Below, one piece after another: positions 1,535 to 62,420 of a stretch of 64,000 bases of DNA. Below the pieces are notes generated by a model, which worked only from the letters and a program-made list of their open reading frames with translations, was not told the origin of the DNA and searched no databases. This stretch comes from Hormiphora californensis. Lineage: Eukaryota; Animalia; Ctenophora. Numbering within the stretch: the stretch's first letter is position 1; every line of letters starts with the position of its first letter. The stretch is from NCBI GenBank assembly GCA_020137815.1, contig CM035354.1, forward strand, positions 5,270,001 through 5,334,000, given 5' to 3'. The position numbers were made by a program, and so were the translations under genes.

Positions 1535-1912
1535 TTATGAAGAGTAAGGCGTTGTGGGTTCCACTACCAGTCCCTTGATATTAAACTCGTACTCCTTCAA
1601 CATGTTACTGGTATCGGCATCAATCTCCAAATCCTTGACAAGAGCGGACACCTCAGGCACATAGTTGTCCCTCCTCTCTCGCTCCTCCTCTTGGAGCTTG
1701 ATAGAGATACCCCTGACGGGTCCCTTCTGGATCCTCTTCATGAGATGGGTCATGAAGCCGGCAATCTTGTTTCGGAGCCTCTTGCTGGGGATAATGGCAA
1801 TCTCCTCGGCAATCCTTTTGTTAGTGTGGAAGTCAAGGGTCAGGCGGGTGTAGTATTTCTCGATCATTAGCCTACTGGCTCGCTTCACTGTCTTCGTCCT
1901 AACTCGACCCAT
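1535..1912 (-). CDS. RPS17: 40S ribosomal protein S17 (eS17), intronless CDS
   Basis: [33 protein letters not shown]...[46 protein letters not shown] is the eS17 signature. The true ATG is at 1912, preceded by an acceptor-like TCTCTAG 5 nt upstream. Confidence 0.98.
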
Positions 1913-2686
1913 GTTGGCTAGAGAGGGATACAAGCACGGGTTAGAGTTTGTAGTAGGCAAAGATGTGATGGGCGAGGAATGTAGGAATAGGGTGTCAATT
2001 CAAGTGTGGGGGTTTTATTATCATGAGTTAGTGGGATGAGATTCGAATACTGGGAAGAAGGAATGTCTTGGCATTTGTGTAGGAAGGGGGGGGGGGTCAG
2101 AAATACAAAGAAAAAATTTGTTTGATCCTAGGATGATTATGAGAATGAATGTGTGAGAAAGAAAGAAAGAAATAGAGAGAAAGAATAGAGGGGGAACGAG
2201 TTTGAGAAGGTTGAGTTTGCAAGAGAGAGAGAGAGAGAGGGGCGATAGAGGAATCAAAAAGATACAAGATGTTGTGATTTGCGTACCTTTCTAAATTCAG
2301 GGCGCCGGTTCCTTCCCCCACAAAATATCAGTTCAGTTGCCGTTCCCCTTTCTCTTGACAGGCGCCCTGAATTAGACACTAGTGTAACGCAGTGTGATAG
2401 AATGACGGGTGGGCAAATATTGCAGAGACTGGGACAGAAATCTAGCACCCACCCGTTATGACAGTGAAAGTTGCAGAGATAAAACAAAGATGTAAGTTGA
2501 AGCAAGTTGGCGTAGAAAGGAGGGAGAGGGTTTGAGGTATAGAATGGGTCGAGACGAAATTGGGGTTCGGGAAGGGAGGGGTATCACCAGACCATTGAAC
2601 CGTCCGTAGCATCAAAACACATCATATTTTTCTGTAATAAATAAAAAAACCAATTCAAGGAATTAAAAAGGGGTGCTGATTATCAT

Positions 2687-3022
2687 CTAATCGAAGAGAG
2701 AGAATCCCATGTCATCATCAGACTCCTCTTCCTCGCTTTCCTCCTTCTTGGCCTCCTCAACAGGGGCAGCAGCAGCACCTCCGGCAGCGGCGGCACCTCC
2801 AGAGGCAGCAACACCACCACCTGATGGTACACTGGCAAGCTTCTCAGATCCAGCGGCTAGAACCTCGTTGATGTCCTTGCCAGACAGCTGGGCCATGACG
2901 AAGGCGAGTTTCTCGTCGTCAACGCCAACTCCGACACTGGAGAGGATGGCCTTGATGTCAGCATCAGAGGGAGATTCGTTTCCACCGAGGGCAGCGAGCA
3001 GGTAAGCAGCAACGTAACGCAT
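2687..3022 (-). CDS. RPLP2: 60S acidic ribosomal protein P2, intronless CDS
   Basis: [16 protein letters not shown]-terminus, Ala/Gly hinge and C-terminal [14 protein letters not shown] motif. Confidence 0.98.
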
Positions 3023-3419
3023 TTTAAGTACTGGTACACGAAACGAGGAGGAGTTACCTATAACACGGGGGTTGGGTTAGAGTAGCACTGAAATGTGAGC
3101 AGAGATGTTACAATTTCTCAAACAGATAAAATAGTAAAGTGGGTATAAAGGAATCACTAAGCTGTTCAAGAGACTGTTTGTTGTTAGACGTAAGCACTAT
3201 GCGGACGTAACATTTGCTAACGCCATCTAGATTTAATAGAGGTCAAGTTTGCTACGCGTGCATGAGGCATGGATCCGCTGAATTTCTTATTCGATTAGAC
3301 ATTCAATAACACGGAGCTCGAGATGAGCAATAAAATAATAAAATGTTAAGAACAAAATATTTAACTAGCAATTAGCCTATTCATTCACTTAGGTAGACTG
3401 AAGTTTACCAGCCTAACTT

Positions 3420-5753: not shown

Positions 5754-5971
5754 ATAGGGCATAGCTTGATGAGTTGAGGTCAGTACAAAAAATTGAAATT
5801 AAAATTTTGATTTTAAACCCAGATACTATACATGCCAGCGGCTGTTAAAACTTTTCTCCCCTATTCTCACAGTCACAATCTCCCGCGCCATTTATTCTTT
5901 CAATTTTTGAAGCATTACAATCAGAATTATAGAAAGGGTGAGCAGATTATGATCTGGACAGGATCTGATAT

Positions 5972-8900
5972 TTACTGCCTATTTTTAGCGGGTTCTAGTA
6001 TTCCAATCAGCTCCTCGACACTCGGCGGGTTATCCCAATCGATGTTGCACGCTTCCAGCTTAGATTTTGCTGCTTTGAAACTCAAGGTGGCGTATTTTAT
6101 AGGAGCAGGGAATTCGATCACCCTGAAAAGAGTAAATCATTTGTGATTCATTGAAAAATATCATTATCAAGCTAAGGGGAAACTCTAACTGAATGGCATC
6201 CCATTAATGGGATCCCATCAGCAGTAAAACTCTAACTGATAATGGACCACAGTGATGGTTCTTTCACATTTAACATATGAAAAAGAAACAAGAAGTTGAG
6301 ATATACCTAGTGACTCGTGGGTCACAATGACAGAGGTAGAAAGAGAGCATTTCCCATTCGTCAATGGTAAACTTGCTATCGTCGTGGAGAATTCTATAGC
6401 GACCAGGAAGCCAGCTACTACTAGGATCTATGGAGTTTTTAGGTGAATTTCAAATCGTATCTAACCCTGTCTGGCGGCGCCAGACCCCAATTTGATTTGC
6501 GCTCAGATGGGTCGCGGCGCCAGACAGATCTAACCGGAATCTTAAAAGTAAAAACAAGTGTCGTCCTAAAAATAGAATTCATCGAATCAAAACTTCGAAG
6601 AAAAAAGTGTTGCTGCTTAGATTACAGTTCCAAATTTATTCTTCGCCTAATCTAAATAGGGTAGCGACTGGATATTTGAAATGGCGGCTAATTTGAAGCA
6701 CCCCTTCTACAGGCCAGCAGGTGCACCAGATTTGGATTTCTAGACATCAGTGGGCTAGTCAGAACTTTGGTAACATAGACACCTGGCGCGGGGGTCGCGC
6801 CAGGTGTCTATGTTACCAAGTCAGAACTCATGCCAAGCCCACTGATGTCTAATTCTAAAAATCCGAATTCAAATTACTGTAAAACTAGATATTTTCGAGG
6901 CAATTAATTTTCGCGATTCGATCAAAATTTACTATTTTCGCGATTTTAATTTTCGCTAATCCAACTGCTACCCCCATTTCACGGTCCTAGTCTATTGTCT
7001 AATTACGCCAAGAGTGCAGTCATCATTGCCATGAGACACCAGACCTGCTTGGCGTAGACCAATGAAATGTGAGCATTTTCTCATTGCTGATTGGCTCTAA
7101 GAGATAGCCAATCAGGGATGAGACAGAAAAGGCTCACATCTCATTGGCTTACAACTCCTACTGAATCCCTTGCCACGTATAAGAGCAGTGGTCACATGAC
7201 CATTATTAATATAACACTCCTAGGGGTTAGGGTTAGGGTTAGGGTTAGCTTTCTGTAAAAAATCATCCAAAATATTTTCGCGGAATTAATTTTCGCGGAT
7301 TTTCCAGCCAAAAATAAAGAGCGAAAATAAAAATCTCACGAAAATATCTAGTAGTGTCTGACTGTGGTCTGGAAACCCCCTACTGCACGGAGCTTTTCTG
7401 AATCACCTTTTCGAGACGAATCCAACGCAACCGGAATTAGCTTTCTATCTTATCGGGAAGTTTGGGCTTGGGCCCCTTCAATTTTAGTCATTTTTTGGTG
7501 CGCGAGCCAATCAGAGGCCTTTATTTCGAAATCTAGGCCTCTGATTGGCTCCCACACCGAAAAATGACCAAAAATGAAGGGGCTCAAGCCCAAACTTCCC
7601 GATAAGATAGAAAGCTAATTCCGGTTGCGTTGGATTCGTCTTGAAAATGTGATTCAGAAAAGCTCCGTGCTCCTAGGGGGTTTCAGACCACAGTCAGATA
7701 TTATCTAGTTTTACAGTAGCCGCCATTTCAAATAGCCATTCGCTACCCTAATCAATAAGTGCCACTCACTTCCAGAGTAAAGAAAGAATTCCATGTAGTA
7801 AGGCGATGTAACTCCGCTGTCCACAACTGTTCCAGAATCAACCTTTCTTCCATCAACCTTATCAAAGTACTGCTTATGTGATCGGCGAGAGAACATTACA
7901 ATAGAAATTAGTGGCTGATTCGAGGCATCTTCTTGATATATACCCAAACAGGCGTCACGGATCTCTTGGAGTTCAGATTCAAAATTACCTCGTGAAACAA
8001 CGGCCCTTGCTATACGAAATTTGGCCGCTCTACCCCGCTTGATTAGATCATCGATTTTGGGATCCCAATAGTAGCATATAATCCTGTTTGGCAGCATTTT
8101 TTCCTTTCTTTGGTATTCCACCGGCATTTCTTTTACAATGTTACCAAGTCCTTGTATGTACTCAATTATCTGACCATCGGCATCCGGGAAAATCGGTAGA
8201 ACTCGATTGATATAACGTCCAGAATTTATATTTTTCGATGAACAACCCACAACCGTAGCGATTGAGGGCATTCCACGAAATTCAGGAAAGTGAGTAAGCT
8301 GCGCTCCAAAAATGAGGGTCTGTTCGTTGAAAACTGCACGAGGGATGCCTTCTGTATTTTGGTTGACTGTCCAATTAGTGCCACCCATCTTAAGGTTAGT
8401 TTTCTTCAGTATATCATGAAGAATCAGCTTTGGGTCATTATGTTTTCCGAAGATTCGTTCATATCTAACAACCTTTTCCACTTTTTCAATTGTTATGCAT
8501 TGCGTGATTTTACCATCTTTTTCACACATTTTGATTTTTCCAAAGTAGCTCGGGTCAGGCATTATAACGTAGTTAAAGTTTGTTGGAGACGACTCGATGG
8601 AACTCTGGAGATCTTCAGTTCTAATGCAGACACAATCCTGTGCTTGGTCTAATATTCCCATTCCTAAATCGTTAGCAAAACTCACCAGTTTTCGAATGAA
8701 TTTGTTGATGACAAATGTCATTGGTAGATCCACAAGATAAACAGAAAACCGGCCATCCTTAATACAATGGGAAAAGTTTTGCATTCTCCAAGTTCCAGCT
8801 TCACTCACATTCTTTCCATCGATAGTAAGACTAGGGAGGACCCTTCCCTTAACTCTGATATCCATAGGTGTTATATCTATGAACGAGTTAACTGTTCCTG

Positions 8901-8994
8901 GTTCTCCGATGGTACGCAAGGTCCTTGAAATGAGTTCAACTGAAGTTCCAATGGTTCCAGTAGCAGGCTTATATCCGGCAGCACCATCAGCCAT
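5972..8994 (-). CDS. Short Argonaute-family protein (L2-MID-PIWI only, no N/L1/PAZ), 3 exons, 498 aa, predicted slicer-inactive
   Basis: Exons 8994-7770, 6427-6307 and 6122-5972, all GT-AG and phase-consistent (1225+121+151 nt). Motifs: L2 VKGRVLP..GTWRM; MID TQCI and KKTNLKMGGTNW; PIWI IFGAQLTH, PSIATVVG, GTVVDSGVTSP..EFFLYS, YRILHDDSKFTIDEWEMLSFYLCH, RVTRVIEFPAPIKYA. AATAAA lies ~75 nt after the stop. Confidence 0.92.
6657..7750. mobile_element. Nested cluster of inverted-repeat elements (MITEs) in Argonaute intron 1
   Basis: Outer TIR TAGGGTAGCGA.TGG.TATTTGAAATGGCGGCTA at 6657-6690 and 7717-7750. Inner elements: 6877-7716 (TA TSD), ~7353-7701 (palindromic, flanked by TATCTAGT) and 6767-6819 (9-bp TSD GTCAGAACT). 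Confidence 0.9.
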
Positions 8995-9185
8995 AGTTTG
9001 TTTCAGTGTTTGAGGGTAGAAAACACTGAAACTAAAAAAACAAAGAGGTGGCTTCTTACTCAACAACACCAATGATAAGGAGGTGTACGCTGTCAACATA
9101 TTTATCCGCAGAAAAGTTTTTCAGTTGTAAGGTTTAAGTCATGCAACTTGAAGCCAACCGACCTCTGTCTCGTGGCGCCAGACCC

Positions 9186-9271
<86 letters not shown>

Positions 9272-10487: not shown

Positions 10488-54495
<44,008 letters not shown>

Positions 54496-60250: not shown

Positions 60251-62420
60251 ATGGGCGAGGGTGAGCTATTTATTGATGATGATCATCTACTGGAAGAATT
60301 ACAGGTACAACATCATAATTGTTCTCACTATTTCACAGACAAGTGTCCGATTTCAGTTTCAATTGTCCGATTTTTAGTTTCGAACTCTAAAGGTTTGTTC
60401 CTGTTTCAGAATATTAATTCCAGTGCCCACCACGGTGAGGAGGAAGGTGGAGATGAGCTATTGTCAGCACACCACATTCTAACTGTCAAGTGTGTCGGGA
60501 TCTTCGTTATGATGGGTATGAATTATTGCCAATTTACATAAAACACATCCCTTGGAATACTGTTATTCTAAGTTCTAACCCTCATTTTCAAAATTTGTGG
60601 GTGCTGTAAGAGAGATTCGATCAATGTAATGCTGGTGCTAATACCTAACTCCTCTTTGATCAGCCCTAACGACACTGTTCTGTTTGCTGCCCTACAAAAC
60701 GTACTCCTGTGAACACAGACAGCGACTGATATCCTTCGCAAACTGCTTTGGAGGAGGAGTTCTATTTGGAACTATCTTTTTACATCTCATCCCTGAGGTA
60801 GCTGTAGGGTGATTGAGGGATTTGAATTGTCAGACAGTGTTATTATGATAGAGATATACTAATGATGTCTGATGATATAGTGATACTAATGACCTGTGTA
60901 TTATATTTGTAGGTTTCTGTTCAAATGAACGAGTACCAGCTGATGACGGAGCGAACCTTTCCCATCCCACTTGCTGAGACATTAGAGGTAGGAGAGAGAA
61001 GGAAAATTAGGGATTCTACTTAGGGATGTTTAATTTCTTTGTGCAATGGAAATGGCCTTGACGTCAGGTTGACGTCACAATGTTTAGAAGAAAGTTCCGC
61101 CCACTCCTCTATTTGAGTGGCTATTTATAATTGGCTAAACTATTAGCATGATACCCAGCTTTAACCGATACCCCATCAGGTTCTAGGATTCTGTCTGATT
61201 CTCTTCCTGGAAACTTTATTCGACGAGTTATCTGTTAGAAAACTAAGAAAGGGAATGTTCGCTGACGACTGTGAAAAGTGTGAAGAGAACCATAATAATC
61301 TCCACGTGTTACAGAATGTTAATCCCACTGAGTGTGAGGCATCCCAACCGGTTAGTATAGCTTCTGAGAAATTGTTCAGACAGAGAATGACAAATTCTGA
61401 TAAATCTACCATTGAACTCTTTTCTCTTACTGATCCTTAGTTTACTTATTCAATCTCTCCCCTTATAGGCGGATACATCAGATATCATAGCAGCGGATAA
61501 GAATGGTCTACTAGTGAATTCTAAAGTCCCTAAAACATGTGTCGTTGAGAAGAGACATAACATTGCCATACTGCTTGCCTCACTCGTTACACACTCAGTT
61601 TTCGAAGGTAGGACGAATCGTTGCTTGTTAAGAAGAAATGTTAAACCTCGTCTAGCTTTTATTAATTTAAAACCTTCAGGTGGAGCTGTGGGCGTGGAGA
61701 GAGAAACGCAGACTCTGTTAGGCCTTCTAGGAGCAATTTTGATACACAAATGTGCCATTGCTCTTACTCTCGGGTTAGTAGTGATGGAGGGCGCGGTGAC
61801 TCAGTTGTAATCGAATTTGGCGCGGTGTTGTGTATGCGCGCAGCAACACAGGCCACACTTGGCCGCATAGTTTGGAATCAGAAATAACTTCGTTGGGCTT
61901 CAGCCCAATGTTCTCACATCCCGTTACATTTTGTCACATGTCCGTAACGGCTGTAACACTTGTATGGATGTCACTAACTCTTCCCATTCTCCTAGATCTC
62001 GGTTGGTAACCCAAAAGATTAGGTTCCAAAAGGGTTGTATCTACGCAATGCTGCTATCTCTGGGTACTCCCGTTGGCATTGTTCTGGGCGTGACCGTGGA
62101 GGCGAAACTAAATGGCAGTATTTTAGATCTTGTCTCAGCAACCATACAGGTATGGAGCCACTACTCGAGTTCTTTTTGTTTAGAAACCAAGTATTGATGT
62201 TCTAAAACCTGTCCTAATATTTCATCTTCCCATCCAGGCACTAGGAATTGGAATTTTCCTCTACATCACCTTTGCAGAGATCCTCTTCCCCGAACTAAAG
62301 GACAAGCAGAACATGCACTACAAGATACCTATCATTTGTCTAGGGATACTGGTGATCGGGTGCGCCTCTCTGCTGCACGACCACAACCATGGCAGTCACG
62401 AGGGTCATGATCACGATTAG
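60251..62420 (+). CDS. ZIP (SLC39) zinc transporter, ZIP1/2/3-like, multi-exon
   Basis: ANCFGGGVLFGTIFLHLIPE (TM2), THSVFEGGAVG (TM4), IHKCAIAL (TM5), LGTPVGIVLG, GIGIFLYITFAEIL; C-terminus HDHNHGSHEGHDHD*. Confidence 0.93.

Follow-up and report, generated by a model that had tools for sequence, protein, structure and literature searches.

Argonaute (AGO) proteins of eukaryotes are described in one review as being, without exception, long proteins of six domains (PMC10772731), and a second review places short Argonautes in prokaryotes only (PMC11370952). A MID-PIWI lobe on its own is known from an engineered construct, which reportedly required a fused Beam piece for stability and still loaded duplexes, although specificity was lost (PMC9262622). 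In human AGO2, the MID-PIWI lobe alone is reported to capture one duplex end first, after which N, L1 and PAZ peel away the passenger strand (PMC13306894). Here we describe an AGO gene in a stretch of 64,000 nucleotides (nt) from the ctenophore Hormiphora californensis (contig CM035354.1, positions 5,270,001 to 5,334,000; hereafter the window). A previous reading of the sequence alone had proposed that this gene encodes an intact AGO from which N, L1 and PAZ were removed by a clean internal deletion. Our analysis confirmed the deletion and its preservation of the MID-PIWI lobe, and placed the gene in a family of short comb-jelly proteins that descend from eukaryotic AGOs. Going beyond the sequence-only reading, the comparisons also indicate that catalytic, seed-contact and C-terminal features have been lost from the family, whereas most of the MID 5'-phosphate pocket has been kept.

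A deletion inside exon 1

The gene is encoded on the minus strand, and the three-exon model first proposed for it is exact. Exon 1 (7770..8994; 1225 nt; residues 1-408 plus one nucleotide) carries the Beam strand, the deletion junction, distal L2, MID and most of PIWI; exon 2 (6307..6427, minus strand; 121 nt; about residues 409-449) continues PIWI; and exon 3 (5972..6122, minus strand; 151 nt) supplies the end of PIWI, with Thr461 at the position of the catalytic His, and the stop codon, the protein ending without an MFFI-type motif. Joined, the exons give 498 codons and a stop in an unbroken frame, free of stops and frameshifts, with GT..AG boundaries at both introns and an AATAAA after the stop. 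Profile searches with Pfam returned Piwi alone for exon 1 (E 5e-22) and a sub-threshold piece of Piwi for exon 2. As anticipated, PAZ, ArgoN and ArgoL1 were all detected in P0004 (Pleurobrachia bachei Argonaute 3, AEX15553.1), a full-length relative, and in none of the short relatives P0001, P0002 and P0006. The ArgoMid and ArgoL2 profiles, for which the sequence-only reading had expected matches, did not match the short protein; this is uninformative because they did not match the full-length P0004 either.

The N terminus of the protein had been likened to the extreme N-terminal strand of AGOs, and alignment to full-length proteins upheld this. The Beam strand (8923..8958, minus strand; residues 13-24) is equivalent to about residues 32-43 of human AGO2: in the predicted structure of the orthologue P0001, residue 13/14 aligns to human 32/33, and a strand is predicted at E18-25. 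When residues 10-24 were compared with P0004, the N-terminal strand scored 30 and the next best site 14, a score of 30 being reached by 6 of 1000 shuffled sequences; the same strand was the best match in 43 of the 58 full-size AGOs with a recognisable motif. Large alignments had suggested an L1 strand for these residues instead. This assignment was rejected, since it scored below the Beam in P0003 (P. bachei Argonaute 4, AEX15554.1), P0004, P0011, P0012 and P0158; in P0008 it was the best match.

Directly after the Beam, a short linker (8866..8922, minus strand; residues 25-43) stands in place of about 330 residues; in the orthologue model the predicted local distance difference test score (pLDDT) is below 50 at residues 24-41. 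The distance from the Beam motif to the GRVL motif of L2 is 37 residues in the window protein, P0001 and P0002, compared with 364 in P0004 and at least 332 in 57 of the 60 proteins that have both motifs (out of 160 examined). We therefore conclude that about 330 residues are gone, comprising N, L1, PAZ and the front of L2. The strand had been said to run on into L2, which holds for distal L2; the front of L2 lies within the deletion. By way of the alignment of P0004 with human AGO2, the deleted span corresponds roughly to residues 44 to 385-400, and helix 7 would fall inside it. The deletion is clean, lies inside exon 1, and joins the Beam strand to distal L2-MID-PIWI. A spacing of 211 was seen in a Trichinella pseudospiralis protein (P0010, KAL1233612.1), a tandem-duplicated AGO model with N and L1 and no PAZ; its PAZ loss may be a prediction error from a skipped exon.

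We considered whether the short form could be an artefact, either of misassembly or of N and PAZ exons being spliced in from elsewhere, which we hold to be very improbable. In its favour, no single contig covers the whole stretch, and a pyrimidine tract with an AG (9025..9045, minus strand), a putative acceptor to which a trans-spliced leader or 5' exon could be joined, stands 31 nt 5' of the ATG and is open in frame, trans-splicing being common in ctenophores. Three short spliced-leader words were absent from the window. However, the junction falls inside an exon, past the N-terminal strand, and N or PAZ from any exon further upstream would therefore come in the wrong order. The sequence-only reading had also found no room upstream for missing exons, which agrees with our results: tblastn with full-length P0003 and P0004 detected nothing of N, L1 or PAZ across the 64 kb (the best match outside the gene had E 0.054), and the longest AG..GT stretches that are open between DIP2 and the ATG were microsatellite frames and short frames without likeness to AGO. 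Further, contigs bridge the junction both in another sample that bears this species label (X5 record 17, spanning 8857-9190 with no other letters and two gaps) and in a second species, organism B (X6 record 18, a 2,170-nt contig holding all three exons, exon 2 being conserved, with shorter introns), and two P. bachei gene models contain it. As the junction is bridged in both an independent sample and a second species, the deletion is not a misassembly.

A family of short proteins under loose selection

Relatives with the same deletion had been expected, and were found. P. bachei model EP00116 P003753 (P0001; 504 amino acids) is 80% identical to the window protein over all three exons (407/507), with 80% across 418 aligned residues of exon 1, 76% for exon 2 and 84% for exon 3. 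A second P. bachei model, P005038 (P0002; 403 amino acids), runs into intron 1 and is 59% identical, with the same N terminus. From these matches, the source of the window is probably closely related to P. bachei. Both models have the same deletion, the same exon-1 end and a Piwi-only Pfam profile, and carry no functional name. A fourth family member, P0006 (281 amino acids), comes from a 1,464-nt ENA contig that covers no N-terminal part; its single open reading frame (ORF) runs over both exon junctions, which points to a family member's spliced transcript or retrocopy. The four are 54-84% identical to one another. Second short paralogues were also detected in the read contigs: in organism B, X7 record 18 carries two small insertions typical of P0002, and in organism A, the evidence is a contig of 407 nt that shows 16 differences across 8860-8994 and breaks off at the ATG, with other flanks revealed by loose ends at positions 8999 and 7764.

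The read contigs revealed further variation. A third related copy, about 84% identical, was seen at 8492-8667 (X2, X4, X7 and X9), with a 30-letter loose end at 8667 that is identical in organisms A and B; absent from the proteins found, it could be one more short AGO, or a closer parent of full length. Divergence in X5 is patchy, with 39 other letters (about 10%) in 7789-8169, within PIWI, and none in 8857-9190; long-standing balanced alleles, gene conversion or an additional paralogue might explain it. Longer relatives of exon 1 were absent from 3847 candidates in a weak search (full-length relatives surfaced in another), and a metagenome scan gave 54 pattern matches and no confirmed one. 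The ESM Atlas lists generic Piwi clusters, including ascomycete Piwi-only proteins of 431-454 amino acids, which may be fragments or further natural short AGOs.

To place the family, trees of 21 and 60 of the 161 sequences were used, both midpoint-rooted and built without a prokaryotic Argonaute (pAgo). In the careful, 21-row tree, the four short proteins formed one clade (100/100), sister to P0004 (100/99), and the quick 60-row tree gave the same grouping. The alternative in which seven full-length ctenophore-like rows are held together to the exclusion of the short ones was rejected (approximately unbiased test, p 0.002), the group having been named after the tree was seen and its members (P0005, P0007-P0009, P0011, P0012 and P0019) being called ctenophore-like from the tree alone. 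Consistent with this, the best matches among sequences in the Protein Data Bank were human AGO1-4 (E 1e-25 compared with 5e-6 for PIWI), and structure matches gave Z 33-37 to AGO and 32-33 to PIWI structures. From the sister position to P. bachei AGO3/4, the short proteins are therefore derived eukaryotic AGO-clade proteins by descent. Horizontal transfer from a prokaryote, and membership of the prokaryotic short-pAgo clades, were rejected on the tree, the introns and the eukaryotic AGOs as top sequence and structure matches. The deletion arose in a copy of the AGO3/4-type gene, and this copy was duplicated before the two species split.

We next estimated the constraint on exon 1, taking the X6 contig and P0001 to be the same locus. 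The exon differs from organism B at 143 nt and from P0001 in 73 of 406 codons, requiring at least 84 changes. The ratio of nonsynonymous to synonymous substitution rates (dN/dS) was 0.36-0.42, rising to 0.55 with transition bias (about 0.3-0.55 overall); like the related genes with the same deletion, a ratio below 1 had been foreseen. Half of 36 differences from organism B were synonymous (18/36, compared with 22-27% expected; p 0.0002-0.0025), the 36 being taken from 40 rows of differences, with 180 further rows outside that set. The substitutions thus point to purifying selection on exon 1 that is real but loose.

These data bear on whether the gene could be a duplicate that is in slow decay or almost dispensable, its frame surviving although little function is left. 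Its dN/dS is far above what is generally known for typical housekeeping genes, 9 of the 16 listed X5 differences alter the protein, and sample S1 contains a frameshifted copy, in which a 210-nt contig joins 7956 to 8459 and so lacks 502 nt (7957-8458; X2 and X4); this copy is either a null allele or a dead paralogue. Against this, neutrality was rejected by simulation in each of three settings, in which none of 5000 runs gave 73 amino acid changes or fewer and, in 12-58 of 5000, no stop arose. Similarly, the exon-1 gaps of the organism B contig (30 letters, net +24) match the insertions and deletions between the window protein and P0001 and fall in whole codons, and all four family members keep the fold and the pocket. 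Decay is, for these reasons, an improbable account, and the gene is very probably real and has been under selection.

Eroded RNA channel and proposed role

Superposition on human AGO2, which the sequence-only reading had looked to, was made with the predicted structure of P0001 (AlphaFold, from an alignment of 94 sequences in which the N terminus is misaligned). The model has a pLDDT of 82 and a predicted template modelling score of 0.85, with low confidence in residues 1-15, the linker at 24-41 and an insert at 325-342. Residues 13/14-504 superpose on 32/33-854 of human AGO2 (Z about 36-37, root-mean-square deviation (rmsd) 2.1-2.7), and the 'uni-lobed' human AGO2 entry 9k6r superposes over 423 of its 480 residues (Z 36.1, rmsd 2.1). 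Despite the misaligned N terminus, the N-terminal strand was placed like the Beam.

Within this fold, the MID pocket and the PIWI channel have fared differently. The window protein keeps K155, Q165, C166, K198 and K202 of the MID pocket (human 533, 545, 546, 566 and 570), and also N200 (human 568). The three short proteins that extend over K155, Q165 and C166 all have these residues, all four have N200 and K202, and K198 is present in three of four, being R in P0002; N194D is a change within the pocket of the window protein. In PIWI, the equivalent of Asp597 is Q, Q, Y or N across the short proteins (Q232 in the window), that of Glu637 (E278) survives only in the window protein and P0001, the RDGV loop, to which Asp669 belongs, is replaced (by an insert in these two proteins), and that of His807 is T, F or Y (T461 in the window). 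Three of the four catalytic residues are thus lost in the window protein, which, by these substitutions, is non-slicing. The window protein has further lost Arg714 (to Gln), His753 with the short loop after it, and Ser798, and the short proteins have lost the C-terminal MFFI-type motif (P0007 ends in MFFI and P0008 in MFYI). The guide-binding roles given to these residues are those of their human AGO2 counterparts; PIWI loops make contact with the backbone of the seed. For human AGO2, Tyr529 has been reported to stack in the MID pocket (PMC13306894), and the C-terminal carboxylate has been placed at the 5' phosphate (PMC9262622).

The insert that replaces the RDGV loop is basic (7960-8070; residues 309-345), absent from P0002 and P0006, and the most divergent part of the protein (25/37 identical). 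A GW182-decoy reading was dropped, as the tryptophan-pocket positions differ, by eye, in full-length P0004 too.

We tentatively propose, giving it somewhat less than an even chance, that the short protein is a non-slicing holder of small-RNA 5' ends or of siRNA (small interfering RNA) duplex ends, which would damp or redirect silencing by endogenous siRNAs (endo-siRNAs). The MID pocket would bind a 5' monophosphate, probably weakly. Provided that the gene is expressed and the protein stable, as we infer, a lobe that has lost N, L1, PAZ and slicing would stall at the first loading step. It would hold the duplex end, with no release of the passenger and poor scanning of targets, and would compete with full-length AGOs for siRNAs, so tempering the endo-siRNA pathway. 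Besides the engineered lobe and the first loading step of human AGO2, there are precedents for parts of this scheme: AGO1x, with an altered C terminus, is described as giving no silencing and competing with AGO1 (PMC9262622), short AGOs have been suggested to have lost catalysis to avoid promiscuous cutting (PMC10772731), and in the ctenophore Mnemiopsis endo-siRNAs are reported to dominate (PMC6211395) and Drosha, Pasha and microRNAs (miRNAs) to be missing (PMC3563456).

Several observations weigh against this proposal. The window protein keeps only 46 of the 66 columns that are at least 85% conserved among 85 canonical rows (P0001, 45; compare 41/43 in P0004 and 57/61 in P0007), and the equivalent of Tyr529 is Phe (position 151). 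The P0001 model stops at the equivalent of residue 854 of the 859 of human AGO2, five residues before the carboxylate that contacts the 5' phosphate, and the isoelectric point of P0001 is 5.95, compared with about 9 for canonical MID-PIWI parts. The stem branch of the short clade is long (0.93, compared with 0.19 for P0004), selection on exon 1 is loose, and a frameshifted copy exists in S1. Isolated MID was reported to bind nucleotides only at 0.1-3.6 mM, and the engineered yeast lobe could eject passengers, though it was an active slicer (PMC9262622). The sequence changes may mean that RNA binding has been lost altogether.

If so, the MID-PIWI fold could have been kept for protein contacts, the protein acting independently of RNA as a scaffold or decoy (for Dicer, loading chaperones, or a viral or transposon suppressor of RNA interference (RNAi)). 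We regard this as possible, but rather unlikely. The 20 changed columns out of 66 lie mostly in the PIWI RNA channel, the C-terminal motif is gone and the protein is less basic; fast evolution and the patchy divergence between samples would fit a decoy under conflict; and Med13 provides a precedent of a fold argued to no longer bind RNA (PMC12477606). However, the basic and polar residues of the MID pocket are kept across the clade, whereas nearby PIWI residues are not, a pattern to which structural roles may contribute at some positions, and no partner was found.

In another alternative, the protein would work as a sensor like the short pAgos, in the manner of SPARTA, SiAgo or AfAgo, loading single-stranded guides, pairing with targets and signalling through a partner in trans, either an N-L1-type protein or an effector enzyme. 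The end state is the same as that described for short pAgos, MID with an inactive PIWI (PMC11370952), and AfAgo, a long Ago that has been split, is reported to rely on an N-L1-L2 protein encoded separately (PMC10954474). The sequence-only reading had raised dependence on an APAZ-like partner, which has so far found no support: in the window, no APAZ or N-L1 partner or effector gene was found next to the gene or fused to it, tblastn detected no N, L1 or PAZ sequence, and the neighbours that Pfam recognised among 130 of 175 ORFs are DIP2, RPLP and RPS17, together with a GTPase of the Ras family and a weak match to ZIP. Likewise, a word-limited search of 1014 candidates 30-421 amino acids long turned up no free-standing N-L1-PAZ protein. 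Moreover, the protein's own Beam would occupy the site that a partner would otherwise fill, and the seed-contact residues are eroded. Overall, a partner-dependent sensor seems a long way from likely. The related suggestion that the protein binds guides of unrestricted length is weakened because several seed-contact residues and the C-terminal motif have been lost.

The locus and its comparison with known systems

Intron 1 (6428..7769, minus strand) is about 157 nt in organism B and is enlarged here by nested inverted-repeat elements that are missing from organism B. Together these elements account for growth of about 1.1 kb, and the read contigs show very high repeat depth in the intron. The outer arms lie at 6657-6697 and 7710-7750 (41 nt each), and the inner palindrome (7352-7703) is 352 nt long and near-perfect; through it, the pre-mRNA of this RNAi gene could fold into a long hairpin. 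Runs X7 and X9 have a loose end at 7749, within these repeats. Seven of the eight read runs behaved as DNA contigs, and X11, guessed to be RNA, gave one repeat-derived piece in intron 1, which is uninformative on expression. Intron 2 (6123..6306, minus strand; 184 nt) is also shorter in organism B, and the AATAAA, a candidate polyadenylation signal (5891..5896, minus strand), is 76 nt beyond the stop. Upstream on the same strand lies DIP2 (10488 to at least 30575), whose DIP2-like AMP domain ends at 10488, and downstream, also on the same strand, are RPS17 and a 60S acidic ribosomal protein (RPLP) at 1538-3076. Further away are a minus-strand Ras-family GTPase ORF (38464-39099) and the weak match to a ZIP transporter (62184-62417); the Pfam scan of neighbours covered 130 of the 175 window ORFs. 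No Rfam family was detected in the window.

A canonical long eukaryotic AGO has N-L1-PAZ-L2-MID-PIWI in one chain, a DEDH/D catalytic tetrad and a C-terminal hydrophobic motif, and the short protein departs from it in all three respects. The closest full-length proteins, P. bachei AGO3 and AGO4, share 39-40% identity with the short clade over L2-MID-PIWI and have the same N-terminal strand motif; unlike the short clade, they keep N, L1 and PAZ and readable D, E and D positions, their records being cut or frameshifted before the catalytic His. The short pAgos (SPARTA, SPARSA, SPARDA and SiAgo) and the split long-B AfAgo are likewise described as MID with an inactive PIWI, lacking N and PAZ (PMC11370952, PMC10954474). 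The convergence on this architecture that had been suggested from the sequence thus extends to the inactive PIWI, which had gone unnoticed. The short protein differs from them in its independent origin from a eukaryotic AGO, its introns, and its own Beam and distal L2.

The engineered lobe of Kluyveromyces polysporus Ago1 and the uni-lobed human AGO2 of entry 9k6r, as these are described (PMC9262622, PMC10772731, PMC13306894), consist of essentially the same parts, the Beam piece among them. These are a construct and a transient state, respectively, and their RNA-binding residues are intact, whereas the comb-jelly protein is the product of a natural gene and its slicer site, seed channel and C terminus are degenerate. 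Among eukaryotic proteins, the PIWI-like protein of Leishmania (PIWI-tryp) is also reported to be without a recognisable PAZ; it differs in being a 133-kDa mitochondrial protein with a long N-terminal region and DDH kept, in RNAi-negative species (PMC3528672), and so is no compact, one-lobed AGO. A literature search outside subscription papers and the P. bachei genome paper with its supplements, which may list the models, found no description of this family.

The short family of comb jellies is therefore a natural exception to both review statements with which we began. It repeats what had been inferred from constructs and from prokaryotes, namely that a lone MID-PIWI needs a Beam piece to be stable and that catalytic residues tend to disappear from a lobe lacking N-PAZ. 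It also offers a natural case of what a lone eukaryotic MID-PIWI lobe does, and shows the long-to-short transition taking place anew and independently, in a lineage where the parent gene survives. If the sensor alternative were true, this would be the first eukaryotic short-Argonaute system, evolved from the comb jellies' own slicer AGO. As a holder of small-RNA ends, the protein would be a candidate regulator of endo-siRNA-dominated, miRNA-free silencing in an early-branching animal phylum.

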